Shown one piece after another: positions 15,711-43,835 of a stretch of DNA of 64,000 nt. Position 1 is the stretch's first letter, and the number at the start of each line of letters is the position of its first letter. A program made the position numbers and the translations under genes. Location: positions 2,248,457 through 2,312,456 of the forward strand of contig OZ316894.1 in NCBI GenBank assembly GCA_973895155.1. The letters run 5' to 3'. Origin of the DNA: Marsupella aquatica. Lineage: Eukaryota; Plantae; Marchantiophyta. The notes beneath the pieces were generated by a model that searched no databases, had not been told where the DNA came from, and worked only from the letters and a program-made list of their open reading frames with translations.

Positions 15711-16143
15711 TGTAACAGGCTGGGAGCTCTGCAGTCATGGACAGCAGTGAACAAGGATGCCTAATGGTGGTATTTGTGTTCCATATATCCCTGACTGTAT
15801 CTGCCAAAAGAGTTAACATAACGTGTACTAAATTCTCACAAACCCTAAACCACCCCAAAAGAAAAAAACAGGTTCGCAAGTAGTGTACCTATTGTCAAGT
15901 GAATGACACAAAATTCCTAAATGTTGGAGGGTGTCACCACCTCCTCCGCTGTCCTCAAATGTACCGCCTCTGCATGTACGTTTACAGTGACACCCCCAGG
16001 CAGCAGGAAACAACAATCCGCCAACAGTAAAATAAGCCCAACTGCCACCAACCATAACAAGGTACATTAGTTCAAAGATCACATTTATTTCAATGATCTG
16101 ATTTATACAAAAAAACTTGTGTCCAAACTGATGCTACTACTCC

Positions 16144-17021
16144 TCACTCTGATTCAGAATCGCTAATGACCCATTCCTCACTTGTTGTCTCATAGTCCTC
16201 TCTATAAGGATCCTGACCCTTCCGTGGCCAGGCCTCAAAAAGATCATAGTCCATTGGGTTTTGACGCTTCCCAGCTGCTACTGATTCCACAAGCCAAGCA
16301 TATGAAACCACAAACACATTATGGGACATGACATAAAAGCGAATGTCTCCCTTCCCAAATTTGCGGCACGCTTTGGGATATGACTTAGTAATGACATGAG
16401 TGGTGTCCTCTGTTATATTCTCCTCCACTGTCCCACCTAGGTCAAGCACTGTGGACTTGTACACTTTGCACTTAACCTCTCCAATTCCCGCTTCCACAAA
16501 TACCATGCTCAGCCCTTTCAGAATTGGGGTTGGTTGCTTCGTCTCCTCAGCCAACATACTCTTCAGCCTTGTAGAGCTCTGTCCTTTGTTGAGTACAGGT
16601 CCATATTGGAGATCAGCAAGCCGTGCCTTTGCTTCCCAGACTTCTTGTCAGCCCAAGCTGATGCAGTAGCTTCTTCATCCTCCCACAACTCATATTGCTC
16701 AGTATCCTGTACAATCTTATGTGCTATGGAATCTGTGATCCAAGAGGCCTCAACTACTTTTAGGCCTTGCTTAGTAATTGCAGAATTCATATAGGACCAT
16801 GACCACTTCTTTATCACTGATAGCCATGTCCCTGCAACAACATGTGTAGTCTTTGGAGTGATGTCCTGAACTACAGTGCCATGGAGCTCAGAGAATCGTT
16901 TCTGTACAGTTGGCCAATGCACTTTGGTCAACCCATGCTGGCCATGGACCAAAATCACTCTGACCCCTGTAAACACTGCTGGGTGGTCACACTTTCTACG
17001 TTTCCCAGGCTCCATGTACAC
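16144..17021 (-). pseudogene. Twin-BRCT cargo gene (ORFs 16563-17021 and 16144-16557, joined by a frameshift near 16640); DNA polymerase lambda-like BRCT
   Basis: Both ORFs fit the BRCT pattern F/L.G....F/L...G.......G(T)V.......TTHV......W(I/L).(D/E)S...K.......Y.L. The second copy (LKGLSMVFVEAG...GGTVEE...THVI...KFGK...YAWLVESVAAGKR...YDL) resembles the plant Pol lambda BRCT as I recall it. Confidence 0.75.
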
Positions 17022-17607
17022 ACACCCTACGTGATGACAGTGAATTTTGGAAGAATGGGTTCACCTGACAATACAAGGACAACAAAATTCCTGCTTTTTG
17101 AGTTGATCTGGCCCACTGGTGCTCAGGTCTGATTTTGATAGGTACAAGGGATATGTGAACAATACGTACTAGGCACCTGCACGGATGCAGGACATTGTTT
17201 GAATATATACTACAAAATCCATATCCGTGGTGAAATGAAGTGCAACCAACTTGTCATGGCACATACATATTTTGTTGTAAAGAAGGATACATTCAATGAC
17301 AAACTTATAGGGCAATTTGATTAATTGCATGCCTGATAATTTATACGCTTACAACTTAGAAGTCCTGTTTTAATTTAGCAGTCTGATGAAAGTGTTTATG
17401 AAAATGACCACTCAGCCTAAATACTTCCAAGAAGGCTTGTAAGGATAAGTTTGTATAGGCATGTACCCAGCCACTGACGCCAGAGCACAAGATAAGTGCT
17501 GCCTATATAAACTCGCCTACCCAACTCCTTTTCAAAATTGGAATCTCTGCAATCTCAAAAAATAGTACATCCACATCAGGTGCACTGTGCATGTACAATG
17601 TTCAGCT

Positions 17608-21575: not shown

Positions 21576-23006
21576 GGCTTCGATCACAGTAGCGTATTGG
21601 AGCATGGAAATTTGAGGTCCATTTCAAGGCAGCGGGAATAAGTACATTGATCAACTGGAGACCAGAAGTGCGCATATGTGAATGTCATACCTTTCAGGTG
21701 GAAGTCGTAGGTAGCAGGTAGCAGGCGTGAACTTGCAAGCAGCAACTTGCGCTCTGTTGCCCCCTGTAGCTTACTAAAACAACACTCCACTGAGAAGCAA
21801 TGACAACGGATTGGAGCTCCTCCCCAATTAATATAGTCTCCAACCAATCACGTTCATGATCTGAGGTGAGACATGACATACAATAATCGCTAATGCAGAG
21901 ATCTAAGAATTGTCTCAATCCAAGGAACAGAACATCTCACGACATCATGGACATTTTACAGTAATAAAATGCAACACCCACCCTATGCATCTATAACATT
22001 GAGTACAAACATTCATGGATTGCAAAATTACTCTTCATGCGTCACCTTCAGGTCAAGTCGTAGCTCTAGCCGCAACTCATAGGTCGTAGCTCCAAGACGT
22101 AGCTGCAACCACGGCTCACAAGTCCAGCTCCCCTGTCAGCTCACATGAATAGCGCCTCCCTTCGCTGCACTCCATGCATCTGCTGCCAGTTGCAACACAA
22201 ACATTAAGCAGTCAATAAGCAGGGCCACTTTCATTGTACATAATGTCACATAAATCTTACCTGGACGGTTTGCATTGGAATCACTATCATAATCACCCCG
22301 GCCGTAGCCTTCACTGATCAATGTGAAGGGCGTGCACCTCAATGCCAGCATTCAGTGACCGCAGCTCAAACTCTAAACTCTCAGTGACCGCAGCTCAAAC
22401 AGCTCAACTCTCATTGACCGCACCTAAAACTCAATTTGCTGGAACTCAGCAAGTCAAAGTGACTGTAGCACGAGTAAGAACACCCTATACCTCACACACC
22501 CTATACCTCACTGTGCACTGGGGCTGTCACATTTTGCAAGTTATTGTAAACCATGGGATTAGTGAGGACCTCCGCGCACCCAGGTTGTAGCCTCTGTCTC
22601 ACTCAGCATCTGGCAGACTGGCAACCCATGGCAAAAACGCAGAGTAGCAATCGGCCGTAGCGATAGACGAGAGCAGCGATGACAACGATGAAAGATGGTG
22701 AATCCCAAAAGCTACTGACTCTCACCTTAAATTGCACAACTCCTGCCTTGTACCTTGGAGGTTGTGTACGAGCGCAACACAACCTCCAACTCCTCCCCAC
22801 TGACGGTCGCAGCTCCCGGTGAAGCTTCAAGCCTTAACGACAAATGGATACTTGGGAGCGCTTGCGATTAGTACATCAATCACTCTTGCCCGAGCATGTA
22901 ATGAAGAGCACAAATGTCCCCTTCGATCGGTCACTCACTGACTTGAGCTCACTGTCACTCAATGTGGACGATGTCAACAACATAAATTGTTAAGCTTCTC
23001 AGGACA

Positions 23007-26000
23007 TGTGGTGCGTCCCATGGCTCCCTAAACCCAAGAAACCCCCCAGCTCAAGCCGATTCCCGCAGGTTTCGTGCTTGGCGAGGCCGTTTCCGCGGCT
23101 TAGCGGCATGGGACGCTGCTAACCTTCTACTACTACTATTAACATTTTACACACATATACTGGACAGATCCTTCATCGGGTCATGAGATACGTAGCCGGC
23201 CTAATATAGGCCTTCCCCTGTCTTCCCCTGTCTTCCCCTCCGTCTTGTTAGGTATGTTTGGATTCCGCCGCCGAAATGATCCCCAATAGGCTTGGTTAAG
23301 CCGCTAAGACCTCTCTCAGCTCGACACATCCAACTCTCACTCCCCTGCTTACTTTCCTTCCTTCTGTTGATGTGGGCACTCTTCACACAAGTTAATGCGA
23401 CACACAAATAGCAAAATGACTCATTCTGACTGAGTCATACCATGCACTTGCCATACAAACAGTACATCTCATACACAAGTTCTGCGAACTAAGCCGTGAG
23501 GCCAACTCTATTCAGCTCTTAAGCATGAGGAAACATGAATATACACAAGGGTCACTGTATGACTAACCGAGAGCTTCTCGTACTACTTGATCCCAGCCCG
23601 GCTGGTGCAAACTAAAAACTTGCTAAAGAAGAGGCCCTGAGCTCCCCGCTGCCCAGGTACTTATCCTGGTAGTGGATCCGCCATTCTTTGCATCGTAAGC
23701 CTAATCTACCTGACAGTAATCTACTTGCCCGAATCTACCTATGTACAGCAAGGCAGGAGCACAAGTGTTGCTCCTACCAGTGGAACCGCAATCCCACTAA
23801 GCTAAGTGTCAGGGCCGCTCCTGGTTCTGATCCTAATCCTAAACGTGGAGATCCGCGCCCGCCCTGCCCACTCACGCCTCCTCCCTCCACGTCCGCCCTC
23901 CCTAAAAGGAACGGCGCCCTTGCACCGTCACGACACCGGTGGTGGATCCTTAATGGACGCCCCCAACGCTTCCTCCTCAGCCACTGCCGTAGGTTCATTC
24001 TCTAACAGATTACCTGCCCTTGACTGAGTCAACTCTCCATCGGCCTGACTGGGTCCACCTTCGGCTTCAGCCTCGACACCGGCCTCGGCAATACCCACGG
24101 CTTCGGCCTCAGCCACTCCCACGGCTTCGGCTTCAGCCACTCCCTCGGCTTCGGCCTCCCCTTCCCCTAGGGTAGTTGGATCCTTAGCCGTGACCCTGTC
24201 TGGGGTCGGTGCTGGGTCTACCTCCTTGATCACCACGGCCTGTGAAGTCGTATTACTCCTTGACCCTGAAGGTTTCCGCTTCTTCTTCGTTGGTGGCTCG
24301 GCAGCTGGTCCCTTCCCCTTCCCACTTACTTCCGGCACTAGTGCAGGTGGCGCGGCTTGTCCTTCGGCAATTACCACCCCTGGTAACTGGTTTGTCCCAA
24401 CGGGAGATGGACCTGCTGCAGCTAAGCATTTAAATACTGCGGCTTGTTTCTTCAGCCGCTCTGTTTGGTTGTCGGCCCGCCGCTGTAGGTTCTCCATCTT
24501 CCTCGTGATTTCCTCCAACTCCTCTTGGGTTTCATCCAGGTCCTTACGTGCCCCCTCCAGCTCGTTTTTGGCCTCCTCCTGCTCCCTGTGGGCTTCCTCC
24601 AATTCCTTCTTCAAGGTAGCCCTCTCCTCCTGGGTTGCTCTTAGCTCCTTGTCGAGCTCTGCAATGATGACAGACTCCATCTGGTTCATCTTGGCGTAAG
24701 TCTGTTCGAGTATCTCGTCCTTCTCCCTTAGGTCGGCCTTGAAGCTGGCCGTCAGGGACGCAAGCTCCTGCTGCAGCGCCATAATCCCTTGATAGGATTT
24801 CCCTAACTCGACCTCCTTCTGCTCAAGGGCTTCGCGGATTTTCTCGAGCTCCCCTTTCAACGCCCATTCCTTTCTTTGGGTCTCCGCCATGGCCCGGCTG
24901 TTGGCTGTTATGTGGGCCTCCTCTGTATTCTTCAGCTCTTGCTTCCACTTCTCCCTCTCTTTGATCGTGTCGGCCAACTCTTCCTGCGTCTGAGTCAGTT
25001 TATCCTTGATATTCTGATTATCAGCCTGCGCGGTGTCCAACTGCCCTTGCATGATGTTCAGCTCATGTCGTTTAATCCGCAGTTCATCTTGGGCTTTCTT
25101 GGCCGCCCTTAGATCTTCAATCTCGGCTTCCATCCTCCTAAGCCGCCGAATGACCTCGTCCTTCTTGCTTCTCTCTAAAGCCACCGCTTCTTCTAATTGG
25201 TGCTTCTCCAACTGCTCCCTCTGGAAAAAGGGTCCTACCTCCAACTCCTCTCCAAAGATGCCGAGCGCAAGTTCCCCACACATCTCACCATACTCCATGG
25301 CTCTATTCTTAGCGTAGGTGGAGTAAGTAGAAGTGATCGGCATCGCCCATCGTGGCCTCTGCTCCCAAGCCGTCCTGCGGATCTCTTCAATCGTGGCTAG
25401 AGGTTTGCTTCCTTTTTCGGCTAGCCGCCTGATGTCCTCCGGCCAATCTCCTCCTGGTAAATCCTTTTCCTTAGCCAGGGCGGCCTCTTCCTCCTGCTTG
25501 ATTCGCTCCTGAAATTCCTGCACCGTCTGTTTTATGCCGTCGAAGCTCGGGGGAGCAACATCTGGTGGGGGAGACTCAGGGCTACTCTGCTGGTTGGGGT
25601 CCCCTCGCACTACCCTTGGAAGTGTGGGGACAAACCGGCCACAGGTCCTTACTCCTGGAACGTGATGGTCCGACCCATAGCCGGAATTATCATGGCTGCA
25701 GTCCTCCACTGCCTCTTCTACCTCTTGGACGTCCGGCTTCTCCCTCTCCTCTTCGTCGGTAGGAGCTTCAGGCAATTCTGCCTCAGATTCGGAGCTTGAG
25801 GTTCCCACGTACATTCGAACACCTGGCTTGGATTCCGGCCTGATTCTCTCCTTGTCTCCAGCAAAGGGGTTTTCTCTTGTGAGCCGGTGTAGGCCTACCT
25901 CTGTAGTAGTGTCCTGCATTGTTGCCGTTGCCGTTGTTGTTGCCGATGCCGATTTCTTTTCTTTCTCCAGTAGTTTCAGCAGACTCTGCATGCCTGGTTG

Positions 26001-27666
26001 CTGCATCGGCAAGTCTTCCTTCCTGGGCCTAAACACCTGCTCGATCGTAGGACTAACAGGTGGTTGAGGCTTCTCAGCCAACGGCCTCGGCGTTGGAGCT
26101 TCCTCGGGTGCCCTTACCTGCAGGGGAAGTACCGGGGCAAAAGTCTGACCTCTGGCATACCGGCACAACAGCGGCATGTGATAGCCAAGCCGCGACACGC
26201 TCCCCATGCCGATTACCTGCTGCTCCTCCTTTAAGATCTTCTTCAATTGGTTGAGGAGGTACCCGTTGTAGTCCCAGCTTGGGTCTGGCCTTTCTGCCAG
26301 ATAGACCTGTGCCTTGCCGATCTCTGCCCTCGGCAAGTTACAATGCATGGTCACCCGCAAGAAGTCGATCATCTCTCCTATGTGCGGGTTGGTGCAGGTG
26401 TTCCGGAAGAAGCCATTCTTCGTTGATGGCCCGGGGAACGACCGGAACTCTTTGTCAGGCAGGGTCTTCCTGGTATCAACTTTGGTCTTATTGCCTATCG
26501 GCAGGCCAAACACTTCGGCAATTACCTTGGGAGTAAGATAGAAATCCTTCCCATATATCCTCGTGCAATTGGTCTCGGGTTCCCATGACCCCACGAATTC
26601 TAATAGGTCTGACTCCGGTACCTCCGGCTTCAGCCATGGTAATCTTACAAAGGCCTCCAAGCCGGATCCGGCCATGAAGCCTTGGTACTTCTTGGTCTGC
26701 ATGGCCGTAAAGCATGCATCCTCCTCCCGTGCAAAATGTAGTTGCACCTCCACCGGTAGGGTTGCCGCCCAGCCCTTCCAGGTGTCATCCCTGGTTGGAA
26801 TGGCCTTGATGGGATCGACCTCCTCCTCTTCGGCTTCTCCCTGCCTCCTGCTCTGCTGCTCGGCTGGCCTCTTTGGTGCCGCCGACCTCGTTCTTTTTGC
26901 CGGGGTGGCTTCATCGTTGACGGCCCCCTTCCTCTTCATCTCTGCTGCCGTGGAGGTTTCTCCTAGCACCATTGCCTGGGTCCACCTTTCCGTGCTACCC
27001 TTTAATTCCCAGTGTATGTCGTTGCAGTTCTTGATGGCCTCTCGGATGCCGACGACGCTGTCTTTGCAAAACAGAAGATCGTCGAGTTGATTGGAAGTAG
27101 GCGTCCACAGGAACTCGTCCTTGATGAGTTCGCCTCCTAAGAAAGCCGTCTTCTGCTGCTCCCACAATCGAGCGAGCTCCTGCCGTTCTCGAGCTGCCCT
27201 TTCTGATTCCTCGTCCTCGTAAGTCTTGATGTACTCAGTTGCCCGTTCGAACAGGCATCCCCAGAAATATGCCGCTTGATTGACGTTACTCATACCCTCC
27301 TTAGGTTGATCGTCGGTATCTACTCTCTCCCCGAGTGCTTGCCTAAGCAGCTAACAGTAGTTGGCCTCCCGTAGTCGTCTGCCTAGTTCGTGCTCGCAAA
27401 TGAGCCACCATCTCCTGCAAGCGCTCCTTACCCCTCTCCTCTGCCGGTCCTTCTTCCCGTTGATCCTTCCTAGCCGCCGACACTTAACGCGCCCTAACCC
27501 TAATCGGGTTTTCACCCTCAACCTTACCTCCGGCCTCTGCCCGGGTTCCATGGTTGCCCCTAATTGTTTATATTTTCCTTGTTTTGTCCCTATACTAAGG
27601 TGTTCCTAGGGTGCCTTCCTGCTTTACCCACTTAACCGGCCGAGTGATTCCTGTCTAGGCATCACA
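23007..27666 (-). repeat. 3' LTR (4,660 bp)
   Basis: Direct repeat of 33889-38548 at a constant offset of 10,882. No indels seen. Confidence 0.97.
23928..27551 (-). CDS. LTR-encoded PMD-like + coiled-coil protein, 3' LTR copy; CAG>TAG at 27351-27353 leaves 1,121 aa open from the ATG at 27293
   Basis: LLEFVGSWEPETNCTRIYGKDFYLTPKVIAEVFGLPIG resembles the plant mobile domain core (L..RW.PET.TF...GE..ITL.DV..LLGLPI.G). It is followed by a long E/K/Q/L heptad region and basic clusters (KRKG...KRTR, KKKRKP). No transmembrane stretch is visible. Confidence 0.75.
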
Positions 27667-30600
27667 TAGCTCCCCACTTAATTGTGAAGCGTCCTCGCGA
27701 ACAACTTCATCTTCGTCCATATAGTATTTCTTGAGGCGGTCATAATGGATGCGAACTGGATATACCTCTCCCGTAATGTTGGCCAATTGTACGGAGCCAT
27801 TGGGGAACATCATGGTTACTCTAAAGGGTCCTAACCAGCGAGTGTAAAGCTTTCCTGGAAACCTACTATACCTACTGTCATAAAGTAGCACAAGATCACC
27901 GGTATGAATACTAACTACTTTTAACCTTTTATCATACTGCTGCTTCATGATATTCTGTCTATATTCTACTCTCTCGGCTGAAATCATTCTCGCTTCCTCT
28001 AAAGCTTCTAACCTATATTCTCGCTCCTTTAGGCTCTCCTCCGCTGAGGCTCTTTCCTCAATTGTAACTTGAAATGTCGGTATCTCAAGTTGCATGGGTA
28101 CCAGGGCTTCTTGTCCAAAGGTTAAGAAGAAGGGTGTATGACCGGTAGTGGATTTATAGGCAAGATTGTAAGCAAAAACAGCAGCAAACAATTTATCATC
28201 CCAATCGAGTTTGTTCTGAGCTACTGTCTTGTTCAATATCTTTCCTATGATTCCGTTTGCTCGTTCTGTCAACCCGTTTGCCTTTGGATGGTAGGGAGTA
28301 GTAGGCCTATGTTTAACTAAATATTGCTCATTTAAACGACTAATTATATCATTCAAAAAATGGGTTCCTCTATCACTAACTAATTCTAGGGGTGCTCCAT
28401 ACCTGGTGAAGATCTGCTCATACATGAATCTAGCCGTAGTAATTGCATCATCCTTCGTTGTTGGTCTGGCCTCTACCCATTTAGTTGCATAATCCGTAGC
28501 CAGGATTATGTACTTGTTCCGTCGAGGGTGGGTCAGTGGTTTCAGAGGTCCAATGTAATCAATACCCCACTTCTCGAATGGTGCCAGAGGTAGAATAGGG
28601 TGCAGTGGATGCCTGGTGGACGCCCTTGGTCCTCCCGCTCGTTGACAAGGATCGCATTGTTTGATAAACTGATAGACATCTTTGTGCAAGGTGGGCCACC
28701 AGTAACCGGCATTTAATATCTTCTTAGACGTGGTTACTGGGGCAAAATGTCCTCCGGCCTCCTCTCCATGCATGGCCCGTAGGACTCGTTTTACCTCTCT
28801 CTTTTCCAAACATCTTTGAATCGTGCCGTTGATTCCATGCTTGTGCAGTATGCCTTTAATGCACTGATACTGTCTGACCTTCCGCACAAAGACTGCGGCT
28901 TGCTCTCGGCTTAATCCTGGCTGTAATCTGGAAGTGCTGAGAAATTGTAAAATCTCAGGGTACCATGTACCAGCTATTTCCACAACGAATAGCTCCTCGT
29001 CGGGGATCGATCATCGATGCAATCCGTGGCAGGTTTACCTGTGATCCTTGAAAAGAAGTCGGCATTGGCATGTAACTTTCCCGGCTTGATCCTCAGCTCA
29101 TAGTCAAACTCCTGTAATAGCAAAATCCATCTTGCTACTCTGCCTGTAAGGTCCGGCTTATTGACTAGGTACTTCAAACTTTCATGATCAGTATGAAAGA
29201 TTACCTTGTACCCTAGTAAATAATGCCTAAACTTTTTACAAGAATAAATGACTCCTAATGCTTCTCTTTCCGTGGTAGAGTAGTTCCGTTCGGCATCGGC
29301 AAGCTGACGGCTTGCGAAGTATATGGGATGGTCCCTTCCTTTCTCATCCAACTGACTTAGTACTGAGCCAATACAGAAGCCCGAGACATCTACAAAAACA
29401 TGAAAATCTTTGTTCCAGTCCGGTGCTATCATGACTGGGGCCTCTACTAACATCTGCTTCAATTCTACCACCGCTGTGACTCGTTCGGGTGTGGGTTCGA
29501 AGTCTGCTCCTGCCTTGAGCATATTGGTTAATGGTAAAGCCAGCTTGGCAAAATCCTTGATGAACCGGCGATAGTAACCAATGCATCCCAAGAAGGATCT
29601 TACATCCTTTATGTTCTTAGGTTGCATGATATCTAGCCATACTGCTAGCTTACCTTTGTCAATCTCAATGCCCTTCCTTGATACCTTGTGACCTAGTAGC
29701 ACCCCCTCGGTTACTGCAAAAAAACATTTATCTGGGTGTAACTTGAGACCCACCTCTCTACATCTCATGAAGGTTTTCCTGAGGTATTTAGCATGTTTCG
29801 ATGCCTTCCCGAATACTGCAAAGTCATCAATGAAGATTTCCATGAACTTTCTCAAGTAATCATGAAAAATGTTCACCATTAATCGTTGGAACATAGCTGG
29901 TGCGTTGCAGAGTCCAAACGGCATACGATTGAAGACATAGATCCCCCATTCCGTGATGAAGGCCGTCTTGATTTGGTCTTCCTGCCGAATCCTGATTTGG
30001 TTATAACCAGAGTATCCATCCATGAATGAATATAGTTCATGACTGGCTACCATGTCTAGTACCATATCAGTAAACGGTAAAGGAAAATGGTCTTTTAATG
30101 TTGCTTCATTCAGCTTCCTGTAATCCTGACAAACCCGGATCTTGGGTTTTCCATCGGGTCCAGCTTTCTTGGGAACTATCACAATTGGAGACACCCAGTC
30201 TGAATGCAGGACTGGAGTGATGAATCCAGCTTCCACTAGTTTGTCGATTTCTGTTTTGACCAGCAGGGAATACTTCGGGTTCATCCTTCGAATTGGTTGT
30301 CGAAATGATTTGGCTCCTAACATGAGATCAATTCGATGTTCCCCTAGTGTTGGATCTACTCCCTTTAGATCTTGGTGACTCCATGCAAACACATCCTGAA
30401 ATTCAATCAATAAGTCACTGATCTCTTTCTCGAGCTCAGGTGCTAGGTTTCTCCCTAAGTTCAGTTCTCTTCCCTCTCCTAAGTCGAGCTTCCGATATTG
30501 CCGTGCTTGGATCATATTAATCTGCTTCTTCAAATTCGGGTCCAGTTCGGCTTCCAGTCTCTCTAATCTCATACCTCCATAAACTGGGATCTCGGCTGGA

Positions 30601-33600
30601 CTAGCCGAGTCGGTCCCTTCCTTGGTGTCCATAGATTGTCCCCTTACCGGTCTATTCGGTTTTGAATTAGTGGTCGGCTCCCCTTCCTGCCTTGGCTCTG
30701 GATCGTGTCTGTCCATCTCATCCACTTCTTGCTCCTGAGAGTTAGGCCGCTGTGCTCTCTCGGCTTCTAATAGGGCCTCAATTTGTTCTGCCCTCGTAAT
30801 CGGCTTGTATGCCGATCCCTTGGTATTTAATTCCTTGCCGATGATCGATGGCGTTGTGGACCCTGCCGGCTCTGCCACAACGCCTGCAGAAAATTCACTG
30901 TCCCTGCTACTGCTCCCCACTTAGCCGTTTCATCCAATTGGTCTACATCCTTTACTTCCTCCGGAATTGCAGCTAAAAAGGTGGATTCTATTGTAAAGCA
31001 GTCCTCGACCTCTTCGTCTTCTTCTTCCAAGTCACCTTCCATTGGTTCTTGCCATAATCCGCTGGGGGGTACCTCTGGTCCAAAGACACCTTCTTCGGTT
31101 AGGTTAGTGAGGCATTCTAACCAACGTACTTCATCGGCTGACTCCAGTCCACTATCGTACCCATCTACTTCCCTTATGCTTTTCCTCCGGTCATCCTTAG
31201 TGTCCCAGGATACCGTGATAGAGGGGGTCCCGAAAGTGAACTGCTTTTTACCCCAATCTTCTATTACCTCGGCTAGGTACAGCCATGGCCTACCAATCAA
31301 TAGCCGGAATGACGTAGGATTTACCGGCTTCATACTACATAGTTAATGCTAAAGAAGATACCTCCTATCTCTGTCTTGATGCCGGTTAACACTCCCGTCG
31401 GAATGACCTGATATCCATTGGCCATGTTCAACACTCTTCCAGTCATCTCCGGTGTTAGACCCCACCCTTTTGCTGTTGAATCAATCATAATATATACCCC
31501 TGATCCTCCATCGATGGGTACCCGTAGTAATAATTCTCCTTGAATCATTAATGGTAATGCTGGGGCTCCTTGATCTTCTTCTATCATTAGTACGTCGGAT
31601 CTGGTTGCTACCTTGGGTAATCTCGGCTTGCCGAGAATAGCTTTCCTTAATTGCTTTCGGAAGTACGGGCTATTTTTCAATAGTTGACCTACTGTTGCCG
31701 AGACTCTAGATTCTAGTACATCTTTAGCCAGGTCATAGGGAACAATCGGCTTCTCTTCTGGTGGTGTTTCCGTCTTGGATTCGGCCAGTTTTGCCACGCT
31801 AGTCTCCACAGCTGTTGGGTCTTCCGAAGCAAACAATGCTTTTGCTCATTTTACATCCTTGGCAATGGCTTCGGTATTCTCCAGGGTTTCTAATTCTCTT
31901 AGTTGTTCCTTAACACTAGCCGTAACAGAGGGGTAGAACAACTTAGGATGATCTCGATTGAAGTCGCTATCTTGTGAAGGATTGGTTTCACTGGTGGGCT
32001 CATGGCTTACCTGTATTGCCGGAGCCCTCCCTTCTCCTTCTGTTGATGTTGACGAAGAGTCGATCCTTTCCTCCGTAACCTTCCCTTTATTTTTGGCCAG
32101 CCCATCCCACCTTTCCTTCCTTCTGGTAGATCGAGTAGAGACCCGGTAGCAATCATGATCTAAATCCTCCTCTGATAAGGTTGATAGGGCTTCGGCCTCA
32201 TCATCAGATGGTACGAACTCTGCCTCGGCATCCTCTTGCCATCCTAGTTCGATGTGGTTGATTTGAACTCCTCCGGGGGTAGTACCTGGCGGTAAGATCT
32301 TGATCGGCAAAAGCTTATGATTTGCGGCCAGGCCTGCCAACCAAGTAGGACATTGCCCTAGCATATGACCTTCCTGTCAGCATCCCATACATAGCTGAGC
32401 TGGTTGTCCATCACCCTGTTTGCGTGCATTCGGGCATTCTCTAGCAAAATGGCCAGGTTGACCACAATTATAGCACGCCGCAAATCTTTGCACATTCGGC
32501 CTAGGAGGTACTGACGGGTTCTGAATAATCCGAGGATACATCTCTCCTGGATTGTTCCTTAACCCTGACCACAGAGATGCAGGTCTGTTGGATAGGTCTC
32601 GTGCTCCAGTCTCACTGATGCCGAAAACACTATCAGCGGCATCTCCCAAAAAGTACTCTACTTCTCCCTGACATGGTCTGATCTCGGCCACATGCCGAAC
32701 ATGATTAGTATTAAGCTTAGGACACGCATCTTTATGGTGTCCGGTTTTATAACATAAGGCACACCATACAGAGCTATCCTCCTGTACTACCTTCTTCTTT
32801 GGTTTTACCTCTGCAATGATAGCCTTAAGTTGCTCGGTAAGGGCTACGATGTTATCTGGTGGCTTAGCCTCCATCTTGACTTTCGTCTTCCCTCTCCTTC
32901 TGCCCTTCCTTTTCCTAGTTTTTTCTTCTTCAGAACTAGAAGATGACTCACTCTTGCTACTCCCACTATCCGAGCTTGACTTATCACTTCTAGACTTCTT
33001 GGGATGTTTCTTCTTCTTATCTTTTTTCTTATGGGGTGATCCCTCCTCTGATGAGGAACTCTCAGACTTAAGCTGTTTCTTCCGGCTTGTGATATCTGCA
33101 TTAATGTATAATTGAATATCCTTAATTGCTTCGGCTAAAGTCTCCGGGTTCTCCTTCCTAATTGCAAAACTCATCTTCTGTGGCAAAGCATTCACCAACC
33201 ATTGAAGTTGCATACCTTCAGATGCATTGGTCTTTGTACGTCTTACCAGTTTCTGAAAGCGTTGCAAGAACTTCCTGAAGGATTTGTTCTCCTTGAACCG
33301 AAGTTGTCCCAACTTCAGCACTGCTAGTTCTGAAGTTCCAATGGGTCGAAACTCCTTAACAAAGAGTGTTTTGAAGATATCCCAGATGGCTTGATCTTCC
33401 ACATCTAATGCTCTGTACCAAGGCCTAGCCTCACCCTTGAACAGGCCGGGAAGAATCTGCATCTTGATGGCCGATTCTCCATTTGCTGCAGCGGTTCCCT
33501 CGAAATCATCCAACCATTCGTCCGGATCCTCATCTCCTCTCCCATGAAATGCCTTGTAATGTATGCGCGACCGCTGGCTCAATCTGGTCCCTGGCCTCTC

Positions 33601-33819
33601 GTCTGGCCGTGCCTCTGGTTCCCCCATGTCGGTTGGAGACTCACTTCTCCTTACCGACTCTTTTTCTGGTATGTCTTCTTCGACGCCACTTCCAGTTTTG
33701 GAGCTACCAGCTCTTTCTGCCCCTCTCAGTCGCTGTGTATCATGCCACCCGGCGAGCTGCTGCAGTCGAGCTCTCTCCCGTTGAATCACTCTTTCTTCCC
33801 TCGGCGTAAGGTCAGTCAT
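27655..33819 (-). pseudogene. gag-pol polyprotein with 2 nonsense codons and 3 apparent -1 frameshifts
   Basis: Gag F.G...EDPDEWL plus three CCHC knuckles. Protease IDGGSG. RT WVSPIVIVPKK, RVCQDYRKLN, DGYSGYNQI, MPFGLCNAP, FIDDF. RNase H DVSG...ERNYSTTEREAL...TDH. Integrase H...GGHF...CDPCQR, WGIDYIGP, SDRGTHF, GLTERAN, WLGPF. TGA stops at 32377 and 31846. Frame changes near 31333, 30827-30920 and 29005. Confidence 0.93.
27667..27680 (-). other. Polypurine tract (TAAGTGGGGAGCTA) directly before the 3' LTR
   Basis: Purine-rich, G-run-containing tract immediately 5' of the LTR TG on the element strand. Confidence 0.7.
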
Positions 33820-33865
33820 TACCTACGCTTCCGTTCTAACTTCATATCTCACGGCTTAAGAAATG

Positions 33866-33884
33866 CCCCCTCCATCTAGCGCCA
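33866..33884 (-). other. Primer-binding site TGGCGCTAGATGGAGGGGG
   Basis: Begins TGG, 4 nt after the CA end of the 5' LTR. The cognate tRNA was not identified. Confidence 0.75.
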
Positions 33885-33888
33885 AAAA

Positions 33889-36800
33889 TGTGGTGCGTCC
33901 CATGGCTCCCTAAACCCAAGAAACCCCCCAGCTCAAGCTGATTCCCGCAGGTTTCGTGCTTGGCGAGGCCGTTTCCGCGGCTTAGCGGCATGGGACGCTG
34001 CTAACCTTCTACTACTACTATTAACATTTTACACACATATACTGGACAGATCCTTCATCGGGTCATGAGATACGTAGCCGGCCTAATATAGGCCTTCCCC
34101 TGTCTTCCCCTGTCTTCCCCTCCGTCTTGTTAGGTATGTTTGGATTCCGCCGCCGGAATGATCCCCAATAGGCTTGGTTAAGCCGCTAAGACCTCTCTCA
34201 GCTCGACACATCCAACTCTCACTCCCCTGCTTACTTTCCTTCCTTCTGTTGATGTGGGCACTCTTCACACAAGTTAATGCGACACACAAATAGCAAAATG
34301 ACTCATTCTGACTGAGTCATACCATGCACTTGCCATACAAACAGTACATCTCATACACAAGTTCTGCGAACTAAGCCGTGAGGCCAACTCTATTCAGCTC
34401 TTAAGCATGAGGAAACATGAATATACACAAGGGTCACTGTATGACTAACCGAGAGCTTCTCGTACTACTTGATCCTAGCCCGGCTGGTGCAAACTAAAAA
34501 CTTGCTAAAGAAGAGGCCCTGAGCTCCCCGCTGCCCAGGTACTTATCCTGGTAGTGGATCCGCCATTCTTTGCATCGTAAGCCTAATCTACCTGACAGTA
34601 ATCTACTTGCCCGAATCTACCTATGTACAGCAAGGCAGGAGCACAAGTGTTGCTCCTACCAGTGGAACCGCAATCCCACTAAGCTAAGTGTCAGGGCCGC
34701 TCCTGGTTCTGATCCTAATCCTAAACGTGGAGATCCACGCCCGCCCTGCCCACTCACGCCTCCTCCCTCCACGTCCGCCCTCCCTAAAAGGAACGGCGCC
34801 CTTGCACCGTCACGACGCCGGTGGTGGATCCTTAATGGACGCCCCCAACGCTTCCTCCTCAGCCACTGCCGTAGGTTCATTCTCTGACAGATTACCTGCC
34901 CTTGACTGAGTCAACTCTCCATCGGCCTGACTGGGTCCACCTTCGGCTTCAGCCTCGACACCGGCCTCGGCAATACCCACGACTTCGGCCTCAGCCACTC
35001 CCACGGCTTCGGCTTCAGCCACTCCCTCGGCTTCGGCCTCCCCTTCCCCTAGGGTAGTTGGATCCTTAGCCGTGACCCTGTCTGGGGTCGGTGCTGGGTC
35101 TACCTCCTTGATCACCACGGCCTGTGAAGTCGTATTACTCCTTGACCCTGAAGGTTTCCGCTTCTTCTTCGTTGGTGGCTCGGCAGCTGGTCCCTTCCCC
35201 TTCCCACTTACTTCCGGCACTAGTGCAGGTGGCGCGGCTTGTCCTTCGGCAATTACCACCCCTGGTAACTGGTTTGTCCCAACGGGAGATGGACCTGCTG
35301 CAGCTAAGCATTTAAATACTGCGGCTTGTTTCTTCAGCCGCTCTGTTTGGTTGTCGGCCCGCCGCTGTAGGTTCTCCATCTTCCTCGTGATTTCCTCCAA
35401 CTCCTCTTGGGTTTCATCCAGGTCCTTACGTGCCCCCTCCAGCTCGTTTTTGGCCTCCTCCTGCTCCCTGTGGGCTTCCTCCAATTCCTTCTTCAAGGTA
35501 GCCCTCTCCTCCTGGGTTGCTCTTAGCTCCTTGTCGAGCTCTGCAATGATGACAGACTCCATCTGGTTCATCTTGGCGTAAGTCTGTTCGAGTATCTCGT
35601 CCTTCTCCCTTAGGTCGGCCTTGAAGCTGGCCGTCAGGGACGCAAGCTCCTGCTGCAGCGCCATAATCCCTTGATAGGATTTCCCTAACTCGACCTCCTT
35701 CTGCTCAAGGGCTTCGCGGATTTTCTCGAGCTCCCCTTTCAACGCCCATTCCTTTCTTTGGGTCTCCGCCATGGCCCGGCTGTTGGCTGTTATGTGGGCC
35801 TCCTCTGTATTCTTCAGCTCTTGCTTCCACTTCTCCCTCTCTTTGATCGTGTCGGCCAACTCTTCCTGCGTCTGAGTCAGTTTATCCTTGATATTCTGAT
35901 TATCAGCCTGCGCGGTGTCCAACTGCCCCTGCATGATGTTCAGCTCATGTCGTTTAATCCGCAGTTCATCTTGGGCTTTCTTGGCCGCCCTTAGATCTTC
36001 AATCTCGGCTTCCATCCTCCTAAGCCGCCGAATGACCTCGTCCTTCTTGCTTCTCTCTAAAGCCACCGCTTCTTCTAATTGGTGCTTCTCCAACTGCTCC
36101 CTCTGGAAAAAGGGTCCTACCTCCAACTCCTCTCCAAAGATGCCGAGCGCAAGTTCCCCACACATCTCACCATACTCCATGGCTCTATTCTTAGCGTAGG
36201 TGGAGTAAGTAGAAGTGATCGGCATCGCCCATCGTGGCCTCTGCTCCCAAGCCGTCCTGCGGATCTCTTCAATCGTGGCTAGAGGTTTGCTTCCTTTTTC
36301 GGCTAGCCGCCTGATGTCCTCCGGCCAATCTCCTCCTGGTAAATCCTTTTCCTTAGCCAGGGCGGCCTCTTCCTCCTGCTTGATTCGCTCCTGAAATTCC
36401 TGCACCGTCTGTTTTATGCCGTCGAAGCTCGGGGGAGCAACATCTGGTGGGGGAGACTCAGGGCTACTCTGCTAGTTGGGGTCCCCTCGCACTACCCTTG
36501 GAAGTGTGGGGACAAACCGGCCACAGGTCCTTACTCCTGGAACGTGATGGTCCGACCCATAGCCGGAATTATCATGGCTGCAGTCCTCCACTGCCTCCTC
36601 TACCTCTTGGACGTCCGGCTTCTCCCTCTCCTCTTCGTCGGTAGGAGCTTCAGGCAATTCTGCCTCAGATTCGGAGCTTGAGGTTCCCACGTACATTCGA
36701 ACACCTGGCTTGGATTCCGGCCTGATTCTCTCCTTGTCTCCAGCAAAGGGGTTTTCTCTTGTGAGCCGGTGTAGGCCTACCTCTGTAGTAGTGTCCTGCA

Positions 36801-38548
36801 TTGTTGCCGTTGCCGTTGTTGTTGCCGATGCCGATTTCTTTTCTTTCTCCAGTAGTTTCAGCAGACTCTGCATGCCTGGTTGCTGCATCGGCAAGTCTTC
36901 CTTCCTGGGCCTAAACACCTGCTCGATCGTAGGACTAATAGGTGGTTGAGGCTTCTCAGCCAACGGCCTCGGCGTTGGAGCTTCCTCGGGTGCCCTTACC
37001 TGCAGGGGAAGTACCGGGGCAAAAGTCTGACCTCTGGCATACCGGCACAACAGCGGCATGTGATAGCCAAGCCGCGACACGCTCCCCATGCCGATTACCT
37101 GCTGCTCCTCCTTTAAGATCTTCTTCAATTGGTTGAGGAGGTACCCGTTGTAGTCCCAGCTTGGGTCTGGCCTTTCTGCCAGATAGACCTGTGCCTTGCC
37201 GATCTCTGCCCTCGGCAAGTTACAATGCATGGTCACCCGCAAGAAGTCGATCATCTCTCCTATGTGCGGGTTGGTGCAGGTGTTCCGGAAGAAGCCATTC
37301 TTCGTTGATGGCCCGGGGAACGACCGGAACTCTTTGTCAGGCAGGGTCTTCCTGGTATCAACTTTGGTCTTATTGCCTATCGGCAGGCCAAACACTTCGG
37401 CAATTACCTTGGGAGTAAGATAGAAATCCTTCCCATATATCCTCGTGCAATTGGTCTCGGGTTCCCATGACCCCACGAATTCTAATAGGTCTGACTCCGG
37501 TACCTCCGGCTTCAGCCATGGTAATCTTACAAAGGCCTCCAAGCCGGATCCGGCCATGAAGCCTTGGTACTTCTTGGTCTGCATGGCCGTAAAGCATGCA
37601 TCCTCCTCCCGTGCAAAATGTAGTTGCACCTCCACCGGTAGGGTTGCCGCCCAGCCCTTCCAGGTGTCATCCCTGGTTGGAATGGCCTTGATGGGATCGA
37701 CCTCCTCCTCTTCGGCTTCTCCCTGCCTCCTGCTCTGCTGCTCGGCTGGCCTCTTTGGTGCCGCCGACCTCGTTCTTTTTGCCGGGGTGGCTTCATCGTT
37801 GACGGCCCCCTTCCTCTTCATCTCTGCTGCCGTGGAGGTTTCTCCTAGCACCATTGCCTGGGTCCACCTTTCCGTGCTACCCTTTAATTCCCAGTGTATG
37901 TCGTTGCAGTTCTTGATGGCCTCTCGGATGCCAACGACGCTGTCTTTGCAAAACAGAAGATCGTCGAGTTGATTGGAAGTAGGCGTCCACAGGAACTCGT
38001 CCTTGATGAGTTCGCCTCCTAAGAAAGCCGTCTTCTGCTGCTCCCACAATCGAGCGAGCTCCTGCCGTTCTCGAGCTGCCCTTTCTGATTCCTCGTCCTC
38101 GTAAGTCTTGATGTACTCAGTTGCCCGTTCGAACAGGCATCCCCAGAAATGTGCCGCTTGATTGACGTTGCTCATACCCTCCTTAGGTTGATCGTCGGTA
38201 TCTACTCTCTCCCCGAGTGCTTGCCTAAGCAGCTGACAGTAGTTGGCCTCCCGTAGTCGTCTGCCTAGTTCGTGCTCGCAAATGAGCCACCATCTCCTGC
38301 AAGCGCTCCTTACCCCTCTCCTCTGCCGGTCCTTCTTCCCGTTGATCCTTCCTAGCCGCCGACGCTTAACGCGCCCTAACCCTAATCGGGTTTTCACCCT
38401 CAACCTTACCTCCGGCCTCTGCCCGGGTTCCATGGTTGCCCCTAATTGTTTATATTTTCCTTGTTTTGTCCCTATACTAAGGTGTTCCTAGGGTGCCTTC
38501 CTGCTTTACCCACTTAACCGGCCGAGTGATTCCTGTCTAGGCATCACA
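33889..38548 (-). repeat. 5' LTR (4,660 bp)
   Basis: Direct repeat of 23007-27666, followed on the element strand by the PBS and gag. Confidence 0.97.
34810..38433 (-). pseudogene. LTR-encoded PMD-like + coiled-coil protein, 5' LTR copy; CAG>TAG at 36472-36474
   Basis: Same gene as 23928-27551. The 653-aa and 531-aa ORFs are in one frame, separated by a single stop that the other LTR lacks. Confidence 0.8.
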
Positions 38549-40039
38549 GGACACAATCAATCCTCATTCTCTTGTGAGTGGAGAATGAGTTTAAAGACAA
38601 CAAGAGGCCATAACATTGCCTCCACCTACAATGTATGTCATTATTGAGGTGGACTTACCAAATGTGAACTCCAATCTCTGCCCACAAGAACAACTCCTTG
38701 CGACTCTTTCGCGCGTCCACAGATTGTCTTACTGACAATGCCAATGCAAAAAAGGGCCCGATCGCTGTTGCAACCACGATGATCCACCTCACGCTAGATA
38801 GTTGGCCTTCAAGATCACTCCCCACTTTTTCGCAGCTCCTCAGTTCTACGTCGCAGCTCCCCGATCCTCCACAACCCCTTGTCCACGGCAGTGCTGCAAC
38901 AAAATAAGCTCCTGGTCGCAGCTCCTCAGTTATTGGTCACAACTGCAACAACATAAGCTCATAGTAAGTCGGCCTAAACCCACAGCTCAGTCCTCCAATG
39001 ACAAAATACCTAAACCTTGGCCCAAATGCGAGCTCCCGATAGTATTCAGACCTTGCAGCATTCAACTGGAAGCGCACAATGGAGAAGAGCTTGAAGGTCG
39101 CACACCTGACAAAATCAATCACGGATTGATCTACGAGCTGGATATTGGAGTCTGTGTCTCTCGTCCGAGGCTTCCGATCATCTGCTCTAGTCCAAAGCTC
39201 CCAAAAGTATAGAGGGCAGATGTACACTCAAGCACGACAAGCGGGAGTGAAGTCCGTAAAGCTCCTCGCCCTAAACGATGGTTGTTGGTAAGCACAATGG
39301 ACATCCAAGTTTTTCCTTGACAAAAACCTCTGAGTTCCCGCGCACCTTCAACTCCCATTTGCACTCTGCTGGTGTGTTTCCTGTTGAAAAACCCGCGCAC
39401 CCTAAACTCGTATCCAAAGGCAACGCACAATGCATACCTTAACACTTAGTGAGAGAACTTAACCCAGTGACACTCGACCACTTTGCGTTGACATGAGCTG
39501 TAAACCCTAAAGAAAATTTGACACAACACAATATGAGCAAAGATTAAATGAACGCACAGGGCTAGGATTAACCTTACAATAGCCTTGTTGCATGCTCATT
39601 AATTAAGAGCACAAATGATGAGCCTAAAAGAAAACTAATGCTATCTAAGATCAAGCCTTCTTCATATGCATATATATACATATATATATATAGCATGCAA
39701 AAATATAGTAGTTGGACATCCAATGTTCTATGGCTGGTATAGAGGGTAGGACAAGTGGTAAAGATGGAGAAAATTAGAGACTGACTACAAAAAGCATTAA
39801 GTTAGGTTAATAACAAGGTTTGACAAAGCCGGCCTGCTCTCGGTTTGAACGGGGCTGAGGCTTCATTGTGTCTAAATGGGGTCAGGAGTAATTATGGTTT
39901 AGAATGGTATGACTAAACTATTATTAAATTGATGTGGAATGACATATGGTGTATCCAAAATCATATGTATATGGTCGCGGATCCCATACTTTAAGGTTTA
40001 AGGGTTCAAATGTAGTGGTCTCATAAGTTGTACTCTAAT

Positions 40040-40536: not shown

Positions 40537-41861
40537 ATGGACCGTCGTGAAGCATGGGGACAGAATTTGCAGTCGCAAATCGAGGCTGAGCTTAATTTAA
40601 TGGAGGATGAACAGGAATTTTGGGAGAAGGCCATATTGACAGGCCCCTTGTCTCTCAAAGGGCTCGGTACATTAAAGCAAAGGAGCGCAAACGAGGCGGT
40701 GGATCAGTGCCTGGGAAGAGACCCAATAAAGATCGAAAAAGAGAGCGGGGACATCAAGTAATCTGGGACGATTATTTTGCAGAGGATTGTACGTGTGACA
40801 ATAGGGATTTTAGACGTAGGTTTAGGATGACAAGAAGATTGTTTCTGAAAATTCACCAGGCAGTTTGTGCTCATGATGACTTCTTTCAGCAGAGGCGAGA
40901 TGCTGCCAATAAAATTGGGCTATCTGGTCTCCAGAAAATCACAGCTGTTCTCCGGCAATTGGCATTTGGAATTGGTGCAGATGCTATAGACCAGTATTGT
41001 AGACTTGGAGAATCCACAACAAGGAAGTCATTGTATAGGTTTTGCTTGGCAATTCGGCAACTGTACAAGGAGAAGTACTTGAGGAAGCCAGATAGAAGTG
41101 ACTTCCTACGATTGTTGGCTGTTAATGAGAGCAGAGGATTCCTTGGAATGTTTGCCTCGCTAGATTGCATGCACTGTGAGTGGAAAAATTGCCCTGTGGC
41201 TTGGCAAGGGCAATTCATAGACAAAGATGGCAACAAATCAATAGTCCTGGAAGCAATTGCAGATCAAGAACTATGGATTTGACATGCATTCTTTGGCTTG
41301 CCTGGTGGGAACAATGACTTAAATGTACTAGACCGATCTCCTTTGGTGAATGACATATTGCACCAACACTCTGAGCAGCTGAACTATGACATCAATTGCA
41401 CACAGTACAAGAGAGCTTACCTTCTGGTTGATGGCATTTATCCCAAGTGGTCCTGTTTTGTCACAACTTTTCACAAGCCCCAAACACAGAAGAAGTGTTT
41501 TTTTGCCAAGTGCCAAGAGGCTGCCAGAAAAGATGTGGAGAGAGTCTTTGGGGTTCTTCAAGCCAGATGGGGAATCGTGAGGCAACCAGCAAAATCTTGG
41601 CATCTTGAGCGAGTGCATACAATTCTGATGGCTTGCATTGTCCTTCACAACATGATTATTGAGGACGAGAGAGGGGATGAACATGAAGATTTTAGAATTG
41701 AGGCTGGTCCTTTATTGGCTGTGCAGAGAGGAAGAATGTCATGGAGAGACTACCTAGCTGCCACAAGAGACCTCGAGAATGCAGGCAGTTGGAATGCTCT
41801 CAGAAATGACTTGATGGAACATCTGTGGAAGCAAAAGGGTGACATTCGATTGGAGGAGTAG
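40537..41861 (+). pseudogene. Harbinger/Pong DDE transposase with a frameshift (~40650) and a premature TGA (41280-41282)
   Basis: DYF...FRRRFRM, GLSGLQK.TA.LRQLA.G, SLDCMH..WKNCP.AWQGQ, LEAIADQELWI*HAFFG.PG.NNDLNVLD.SP, YLLVDGIYPKW, QEAARKDVERVFGVLQARW, ACIVLHNMIIEDE. Confidence 0.93.
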
Positions 41862-42892
41862 TCAAGAAAAGATTTCAGATAGTACATCCAGAATATACGA
41901 GGGGAACTTCGTGTGTAGAAAATGAGCAATAAAGTGCCACAATTTTATTTCAGCTTTGTGTCCACAAAATTGAGATCTCTGAACCTGAACTTAGTACAAT
42001 GAAAATGTTTCAGAGTCTCAATGCTACCTAGCGATGAAGGCTGAATCCTACAAAGCATATGATTGGCAGTCCATTCGCTCATAGGAAGGGGATCTCTGCA
42101 TGAAACAAACTGAATATAAGCCCACAATGTTCACAGTTTAATGAGATAGTCTTGTACAGAAAAAAATCTTGATACAAATGGTACATACCCTGAAGCTTTG
42201 CTCAAGTGTCAAGCTTATCGTCTTCCTCATTGTCACCCTTGTCTTCCATGCGAAGGAGCGCTTGCTCAAATGAATTGGCTGCCCATTCATTCAACACAAA
42301 ATGTACTCTAGGGGTCTGTTGCCTTGTCTGCTGTGGGGCCTTCCCTTTGGCAATTGGAGTTGTCTTACTCACTCTGGGCTTGACAATGGAGGGGCATGGC
42401 TTCGAATGTGCAGTTGAGCTTTCAGAGCTGGATGTTGACATGCTTCCTTGATGGCTGAATCAGTAGCGCTCCCAACCCAAAAAATGAGTCTACGGCTACA
42501 GAACAAAGACATGCGAGCTTCCAAAATGAGTAGAAGACAATGCAAGCTCCCACAATTTTAGGCAAAATAAGACGTAAGTTGCAGGCCTCGCGAGCTTCCC
42601 AAGACAATAGTGTCCACATCAGGTCACACTAATTTCTGCAGGGTTCACATCAGATCACATGTATGTGCATACAGAGGTTTGTACCGTGGGAGACAAGTCC
42701 ATAAATCCCTGACATTGCAGTACCAAACAGGACCTTGTACACGCGAGTTGAATTGGACACGAATTTTGGACTAGTCCAACAAATGAAGTCACAATTTATG
42801 AAACTATGTCCACTTTATTAAATTCCAAATTTTCAAGAGTACATACACATGAAGCAATGTGACAAGTAAAATACTCTAGCAATTATGTCAAA

Positions 42893-43835
42893 CTACAGGG
42901 GGGATGGAGGGTCAATTTCATCTATAGGTGAAGAGTCTTCATCGTTGGGCAGTGGAGTTTGAAGCGAACTCCTAGACGCCCTGGGTGGCAATGGGGAGGG
43001 TACTGGAATGGTCCCCAGAGAGATCCTATCTCTTAATTTGGTCATCTGGTCCTTCCTCCATAAAGTCAAAAAATCCAACGTCTCACTGTCAAGGTGCTCA
43101 GTTGGCATGGTGAGCATATTCATGAAGGTTTGGCTCTCCAGAACCCTCAAACGCTGCACACCTGTTTCAGCCATCACCTTCTGAGCTTGGGCAGCCATCT
43201 TGAAAGCATCCTCATGAACTTTCATTTTATTGGCATTCTCTTTTGCAAGCTTGCTTCCAAGGGGTCTCTTGCTCGAATTTCCGTGGGAGCTGTCTTGCTC
43301 ATTTTGCTCAATTTCTACTTCAGATTGAACATTGTTTGCCCCCTCGTCTGAGAGACTTGTGTACTTCTCTCCTTGCTCATTGCTTGGTGTCCCCACTGGC
43401 TTCCGTTTGCCATTTCCCTTTGACATCTGGTCTTCTGGCAGCATCCACCTTTGGCAGTCCTTGAGAATGTCGTAGCACACCGAAAAAGAAAACTCCTAAC
43501 TTGCCCTTCGAATGTCGAGTCTTGTACAGTTCTTTCGCCTTGATCAAGGTGTCCTCGTTGTTGGTGCCAGAAATGTCAAGATCTTCAACACTTTTGTGGC
43601 ACCCAATAAAACAAGTTGTGGCCTTCCGCACATCACCCCACTTGCTCTCGAGGGATTTTGCGGTCCTACTCTCAAGACCTCGAGGTTTATTTATGTCGTA
43701 ATGCTCCCCGATGCGTTCCCAGAAATTCTCTCTCTTTTGCCCAGACCCAACACATGGGTCTTGAGAAATCTCCAAGTATGAATAGCAGAGTTGCTTTAAT
43801 TCTGGTGGACTGAAGTTCTTCCCTCGCTGGGCCAT
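42893..43835 (-). pseudogene. Harbinger Myb/SANT-like (NAM-associated-type) accessory protein with a frameshift near 43485
   Basis: RGKNFS..E...LC.SYL.ISQDP.VG.GQK...FWERI...Y......RT.KSL..KW, SG.N.ED...KA..LY, then CYDILKDCQRW and KRPLGSKLAKE. It converges on the transposase gene. Confidence 0.85.

Follow-up and report, generated by a model that had tools for sequence, protein, structure and literature searches.

With regard to plant Ty3/Gypsy retrotransposons, the closest described protein class is the 3'F extra open reading frame (ORF) of Athila elements (PF03078, ATHILA ORF-1; PF20167, for example the aORF(+) of sunflower Athila 14), which lies on the sense strand downstream of pol. The available part of PMC11728184 relates PF20167 to Athila ORF1 and reports a nuclear localization signal (NLS) for the sunflower Athila protein. 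Extra ORFs are also carried by Ogre (PMD, PF10536) and Retand (Transposase_28, PF04195) of the same superclade, some of them with SMC-like coiled coils according to the accessible text of PMC6317226; most of them are internal and on the antisense strand, and their elements have an additional RNase H (aRH). Concerning layout, the closest parallel in the literature searched is the sag gene of mouse mammary tumour virus (MMTV), which, in the portion of PMC4667437 that was available, lies mostly within U3, is present at both ends, is kept in solo long terminal repeats (LTRs) and shows purifying selection across copies. In this study, a stretch of 64,000 nucleotides from Marsupella aquatica (contig OZ316894.1, positions 2,248,457 to 2,312,456; hereafter the window) was investigated, and a complete minus-strand LTR element of 15,542 bp (positions 23007-38548 of the window) was found to carry a long sense-strand ORF inside each of its two LTRs. 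Taken as a whole, the locus is likely best explained by the usual 3' accessory gene of the lineage, maintained by selection and relocated into the LTR by the position of the cassette that sets the LTR start.

Comparatively, the window element and Athila have a remote domain kinship, a 5-bp target site duplication (TSD) and the lack of both aRH and chromodomain in common. In Athila, the ORF is placed after pol and before the 3' LTR; the window ORF fills 78% of the LTR, has about double the length of the sunflower one and falls below the Pfam cut-offs. The window integrase groups with bryophyte-type sequences, apart from angiosperm ones. In contrast to the Ogre and Retand ORFs, the window ORF is sense, in the LTR and without an accompanying aRH. 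The layout of MMTV sag is shared, as the ORF stands inside both LTRs, and this parallel, already drawn in an earlier prediction made from the sequence without database searches (hereafter the original prediction), holds; no sequence relation between sag and the window ORF was found. Sag is a membrane-bound superantigen of about 320 aa from an infectious vertebrate retrovirus, unlike the window protein, which has 1,100-1,200 aa and no membrane segment and belongs to a plant retrotransposon. Lentiviral nef, part of which lies in U3, is a further parallel.

The element is a recently inserted, Athila/Tat-related Ty3/Gypsy retrotransposon with the domain order gag-protease-reverse transcriptase (RT)-RNase H (RH)-integrase, the protease being recognized by motif only, without a Pfam match. 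Its two LTRs of 4,660 bp are 99.66% identical, with 16 mismatches, all of them transitions, and no indels, and the divergence (K = 0.0034) gives an insertion age of about 0.13-0.25 million years under two assumed substitution rates. Both LTRs are bounded by TG...CA, the primer binding site (PBS) stands 4 nt past the 5' LTR and the polypurine tract (PPT) directly adjoins the 3' LTR. The 6.2-kb interior is taken up by gag, the protease region, RT-RH and integrase, with reading frames broken in this copy, and since the integrase stop falls just within the 3' LTR, the interior has no space for an extra ORF. Gag-pol (27655-33822) is interrupted by two or more stops and by several changes of frame, although the LTRs are only 0.34% apart; this copy may have moved in trans.

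Each LTR holds a single sense frame that opens with an ATG at LTR position 116 and closes at 3739, the stop codon included (3,624 nt, or 77.8% of the LTR, with 1,207 codons), far beyond the longest stop-free frame in 300 shuffles of the LTR (mean 178 aa, maximum 335). One stop interrupts each copy, at codon 67 in the 3' LTR and at codon 654 in the 5' LTR, and each copy is open at the other's break. The original prediction had claimed one sense frame of these dimensions starting 115 bp from the LTR edge, with a fully open two-copy consensus; the coordinates were reproduced exactly, and the stops are indeed private. C-terminal to the conserved domain, a spacer of low complexity leads into a predicted coiled coil, which precedes a basic cluster. 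A crude scan places a proline-free heptad region rich in E/K/R/Q at about codons 775-1040, consistent with the long coiled coil that had been announced; of the several NLS-like basic clusters also announced, only one is clear, at codons 1086-1093. The claim that the protein lacks a transmembrane stretch stands likewise, as no hydrophobic segment was detected in the LTR ORF (maximum 19-residue Kyte-Doolittle mean 0.98), and an env-like ORF was rejected on this ground. One N-terminal homologue, from a single automatic gene call, begins at a methionine in register with Met87, and the ORF may thus start at Met87 rather than at Met1; such a start would leave an uninterrupted frame of 1,121 codons in the 3' LTR and room for the TATA-like box at LTR position 95. 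At window position 34797, right at the ORF end, 34 contigs of sequencing run X2 and 7 of run X1 diverge from this copy, which suggests a subfamily with a different ORF C-terminus.

A one-off recombinant, or a duplication introduced by the assembly, in an element that normally has its ORF in the interior was considered with reference to sequencing-run contigs. The LTR was wholly or partly present in 14 of the 16 runs listed, with at least half of its words in 6. Contigs from four runs were aligned to the interior and the 5' LTR, and median summed contig depth was compared by region. Relative to gag-protease, this depth was 4.1, 4.1, 3.1 and 3.2 times over the ORF and 3.7, 5.7, 3.9 and 3.1 times over the non-coding LTR tail, and it drops sharply in the flanking DNA. 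The ORF is thus at about the level of the LTR tail and 3-4 times that of gag-protease, as would be expected if it sits in the LTR family-wide; an internal ORF would be expected near 1, and ratios above 2 would fit many solo LTRs. Some contigs break precisely at an edge of the LTR: X2 has three such joints at 33889, and a piece from X6 ends at 38548. The codon-654 stop of the 5' copy is absent from most of the aligned contigs. With the LTR-level ORF depth in all four runs, the perfect TSD, the PBS and PPT abutting the repeats, the 16 transitions between the LTR copies and the single LTR-start cassette, a one-off event is extremely improbable. It is therefore supported that the ORF-in-LTR layout is a trait of the family, as the original prediction had it, with the depth as supporting rather than final evidence; the family is young and of high copy number.

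Selection was examined with variants from runs X1, X2, X7 and X10 across positions 37000-37700, which cover the conserved domain; 40 of the 98 variants were listed, and the figures that follow refer to these. Synonymous variants numbered 30 of 40, where substitutions of the same types would be expected to give 11.3 (P 1e-9); 27 of the 40 fell in third codon positions, and a rough omega of 0.13 was obtained. Among the sites seen in two deep runs, 20 of 29 were synonymous (P 6e-6). The LTR frame is a real gene under purifying selection in its domain.

With respect to the nature of the protein, codons 88-484 were used as the homology query, with codons 1-87 outside it, and 21 protein matches were obtained (best 41% identity, E 1e-48), two of them from Calypogeia fissa. 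Most span the conserved domain and three span codons 91-245. P0130, a protein of 2,214 aa with Ig-like domains, was treated as a chance match and excluded from the alignment of homologues (A1), from which P0125, P0128 and P0132 were also left out as N-terminal matches only. The domain profile matched the post-integrase ORFs of four related loci (L012, L014, L001 and L002), with no match among reversed controls, and A1 aligned with the relatives' post-integrase ORFs (A3) in hhalign at 97.4%, E 1e-11, over 162 columns. PF20167 was matched by two of the eight A3 members; the ORF of L012 covers model positions 8-169 of 177 (E 5e-5, 23.7 bits). In language-model searching, Transposase_32 and ATHILA clusters came up twice. 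Judged from these profiles, the LTR-encoded domain is a remote Transposase_32/Athila-ORF1-like one, of the ordinary 3' extra-ORF class of the lineage; the oddity is the position of the gene and not the protein class. The PMD-like segment of the original prediction could not be recovered, as PF10536 matched neither the window ORF nor any of its 21 homologues or 10 ORFs of relatives, and the chain of profiles leads to PF20167 instead; PF04195 was equally without a match in these three sets. The wider idea of an accessory gene in the LTR survives in that the gene is real, selected, not env-like and present at family level, without a detectable PMD domain.

Other searches gave little. A word-index protein search with the domain yielded none of 632 candidates and, with A1, only one of its own members, and viral and metagenome contigs scanned with the ORF gave no match. 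Single-sequence fold prediction reached a predicted local distance difference test score (pLDDT) of 35, and an 18-row model a mean of 54; with this weak model, the fold search gave no significant match, the best E being 0.22 in a viral library and the best Z 4.6 among 48,161 PDB chains, and a PDB sequence search gave nothing at useful E-values.

The position of the gene was compared across relatives through an integrase alignment scan, which returned 79 loci; 18 were examined downstream of the integrase and nine were classed into two layouts. In L002, L005, L012 and L014, the integrase is followed by a purine tract without TG, the ORF, and then, within about 150 nt at most, a hairpin-PPT-TG cassette and the LTR, the element after the ORF in L014 being a similar tract rather than the cassette of the other three. 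In L003, L006, L008, L009 and L010, the cassette comes straight after the integrase and the ORF lies downstream of it, starting about 550-780 nt past the LTR start in the four loci where a start codon is clear. The sequence following the PPT in L003 and L006 matches, as an inverted repeat, the last bases of the 5' LTR ahead of the PBS (9 of 9 and 12 of 13 nt), and in L008 no second cassette was seen in the 1,106 nt past the ORF. A DNA profile of the LTR-start cassette, built from eight relatives' cassettes with the window excluded, matched the element once, just before the 3' LTR (E 6e-7), and the LTR-proximal cassette of L002 is nearly identical in sequence to that of the window. The LTR start is set by the PPT, so that with the cassette ahead of the ORF the gene would come to lie in U3; reverse transcription from this plus-strand-priming cassette would then copy it to both ends. 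On these grounds the gene very probably lies in U3.

The five loci of the second layout form a separate clade (support 100/100), probably with the in-LTR gene in common; in their ORFs, the proportion of nonsynonymous differences is well below that of synonymous differences, and synonymous divergence is saturated, so that the layout appears stable over long times. The window element is a long branch beside both this clade and L002, and a single origin of the in-LTR layout is neither shown nor rejected (approximately unbiased test, p 0.47; 49% of bootstrap trees allow one). As for how the layout arose, we lean towards either a single exchange, by template switch or recombination, between relatives with and without the ORF, or the replacement of the upstream purine tract by the LTR-start cassette, with the old downstream cassette decaying. 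An ORF-less Athila relative, Diaspora, is described in the available part of PMC1142308. An 8-nt purine motif at LTR position 4020 was not used as a relic of the old PPT, as the same 8-mer occurs inside the ORF and is unscored by the cassette profile. At L014 5649-9740, the integrase C-terminus and the accessory domain share one reading frame, and purine tracts occur both within this fusion and past its stop codon.

The U3 position might also be a neutral or recent accident of a shifted PPT, in which only the 3' LTR copy would be expressed, from the element RNA, as an ordinary 3' extra ORF, while the 5' and solo copies would be passengers. On the genomic RNA, a U3 gene does sit downstream of pol like the Athila 3'F ORFs, the close relative L002 keeps the internal layout, and an ATG at LTR position 116 leaves little promoter space. 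The long-term stability of the layout in the separate five-locus clade speaks against a recent accident, and the TATA-like box with the in-register Met87 would leave space for a 5' untranslated region; we give this explanation only slightly less than an even chance.

Several points weigh against the relocation of a selected, Athila-type accessory gene into the LTR and have to be set beside the evidence above. The window ORF itself matches neither PF20167 nor PF10536, the Transposase_32 link is transitive and under Pfam's 45-bit cut-off, and the language-model scores for named families were below 0.9. Summed contig depth is not copy number, and X3 and X6, which are shallow runs, may be mixed samples. 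The selection figures come from 40 of 98 variants at sites that are not independent, and a whole-ORF sample (8 of 17 sites synonymous against 34% expected, P 0.19) is not significant, so that selection is established for the domain only and the dN/dS check proposed in the original prediction bears out the gene in that part alone. The in-LTR layout of the relatives is deduced, none of them having been recovered with its two LTRs. A downstream cassette has left no clear relic in the LTR tail, and the U3 placement is read from DNA sequence.

Regarding function, PMD, Transposase_28, MAIN/MAIL1 and VANC domains are probably of a general kinship. In the available part of PMC13547354, the Athila domain and VANC are both predicted coiled-coil oligomers, and VANC resembles MAIN. 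The window protein would probably be made from a subgenomic RNA, perhaps with a promoter at the LTR head and a start at Met87. We propose, tentatively and at odds somewhat below even, that it is a nuclear protein forming coiled-coil oligomers, which would act in trans on the chromatin of the family and keep it transcribable, as VANC does for MuDR. The same architecture might serve a different role, that of a cofactor tethering the pre-integration complex to chromatin or carrying it into the nucleus: the in-frame junction in L014 places the homologous domain at the integrase C-terminus, the usual site of targeting domains, the basic cluster at codons 1086-1093 would suit it, and a nuclear-import role for additional ORFs is proposed in the accessible part of PMC7264820. 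The integrase fusion is found in that one locus and may amount to a lost stop; pol and the ORF are distinct frames elsewhere, in the window as in the remaining loci. We regard the cofactor as unlikely, though not strikingly so. The chromatin factor is accordingly ranked as the most likely role, with the integration or import cofactor second. A bolder proposal, which we regard as quite doubtful, is that bryophyte Gypsy lineages have put a VANC/MAIN-like chromatin factor with its own promoter into U3, by which every insertion and solo LTR would be a self-contained, trans-acting anti-silencing gene. If this were true, solo-LTR recombination, the host's main deletion route, would no longer remove the anti-silencing gene.

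As to lineage, the liverworts Calypogeia fissa (68-71%) and Riccia sorocarpa (53-59%) supply the nearest named relatives in RT-RH, and the integrase groups with Riccia and metagenome sequences of the bryophyte type, apart from angiosperm ones, in a comparison made without curated Athila references, the larger tree being computed in quick mode only. A Pfam scan detected neither an additional RH nor a chromodomain, and the one RH keeps its catalytic motifs. The PBS presumably resembles tRNA-Asn, and the Athila clade uses tRNA-Asp, -Asn or -Ala. The TSD of 5 bp is as in Athila (lineage table); the Athila hallmark of an extra ORF between pol and the 3' LTR is absent, since the ORF is within the LTR. 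Tat Z1/Z2 elements are, in the available part of PMC10508981, non-chromoviruses without aRH, found in Marchantia and with the native RH intact, which the window element resembles in its lack of aRH and its intact native RH. One RH without aRH or chromodomain would fit Athila or the aRH-less Tat Z1/Z2, and the element was filed under neither. Phygy, of mean length 8.6 kb in the part of the lineage table at hand, is alike in that pol fills the internal region; it was rejected because its TSD is a 4-bp NCGN, against 5 bp here.

An LTR-borne ORF is not mentioned for Tat Z1/Z2 or Phygy in the available parts of PMC10508981 and the lineage table, and the accessible portions of the literature searched, mostly outside subscription journals, yielded no report of an LTR-borne gene in a plant retrotransposon. 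What is new is the LTR position in plants; the 3' accessory-ORF class and the sag-type layout are already known. The sag-type layout is thereby extended to plants, with a selected gene of 1,100-1,200 aa filling the LTR, for which the position of the PPT cassette is a simple suggested cause. LTRs are usually taken as non-coding and reviews, in the parts available, place extra ORFs internally, so annotation pipelines can miss such genes. Internal and in-LTR layouts in close relatives offer a natural comparison for the role of Athila-type accessory ORFs, and the LTR gene is a protein marker for solo LTRs.

Table 1. Features of the LTR element in the window (positions in the window)
Feature	Positions	Strand	Basis
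TSD GGACA, left	23002..23006	.	boundary analysis
3' LTR, 4,660 bp, TG...CA	23007..27666	-	self-comparison, boundary analysis
Accessory ORF, 3' LTR copy, stop at codon 67; open for 1,121 codons from Met87 (27293)	23928..27551	-	
NLS-like basic cluster, codons 1086-1093	24273..24296	-	sequence scan
Predicted coiled coil, about codons 775-1040	24432..25229	-	crude heptad scan; weak ATG16 coiled-coil match
Conserved domain, codons 259-465, remote Transposase_32/Athila-ORF1-like	26157..26777 (37039-37659 in 5' LTR)	-	homology searches, variants, profiles
TATA-like hexamer, LTR position 95, candidate ORF promoter	27567..27572	-	sequence scan
Integrase, without chromodomain, stop 10-12 nt within 3' LTR	27655..29010	-	frames, Pfam scan
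Hairpin and PPT cassette setting LTR start, directly at integrase end	27667..27705	-	boundary analysis, cassette DNA profile
RT and RNase H, single RH, catalytic motifs kept	28974..30920	-	Pfam scan, motif check
Gag tail and protease region, reading frame disrupted in this copy (stops, frame changes)	30827..32376	-	frames
Gag with CCHC knuckle	32377..33822	-	frames, Pfam scan
PBS	33867..33884	-	boundary analysis
5' LTR, 4,660 bp, TG...CA	33889..38548	-	self-comparison, boundary analysis
Accessory ORF, 5' LTR copy, 1,207 codons, stop at codon 654 (36472-36474)	34810..38433	-	
TSD GGACA, right	38549..38553	.	boundary analysis

Besides the LTR element, other features were noticed in the window. 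A broken CACTA-type transposase (Transposase_21, DUF4218, DUF4216) occupies 12081-15734 on the minus strand, and two BRCT-domain fragments (16144-17060, minus strand) adjoin this remnant. At 40611-43495 there is a Harbinger-like pair, with Plant_tran/DDE_Tnp_4 on the plus strand and a NAM-associated ORF on the minus strand. A direct repeat of 82% identity (846-1245 and 5763-6152, 4.9 kb apart) may mark the termini of an older element. The minus strand at 47238-55673 has a senataxin/SEN1-like frame of 2,811 codons without introns (SEN1_N, barrel, AAA_11 and AAA_12) and with a single stop at codon 1830, possibly a retrocopy or an intron-free gene.

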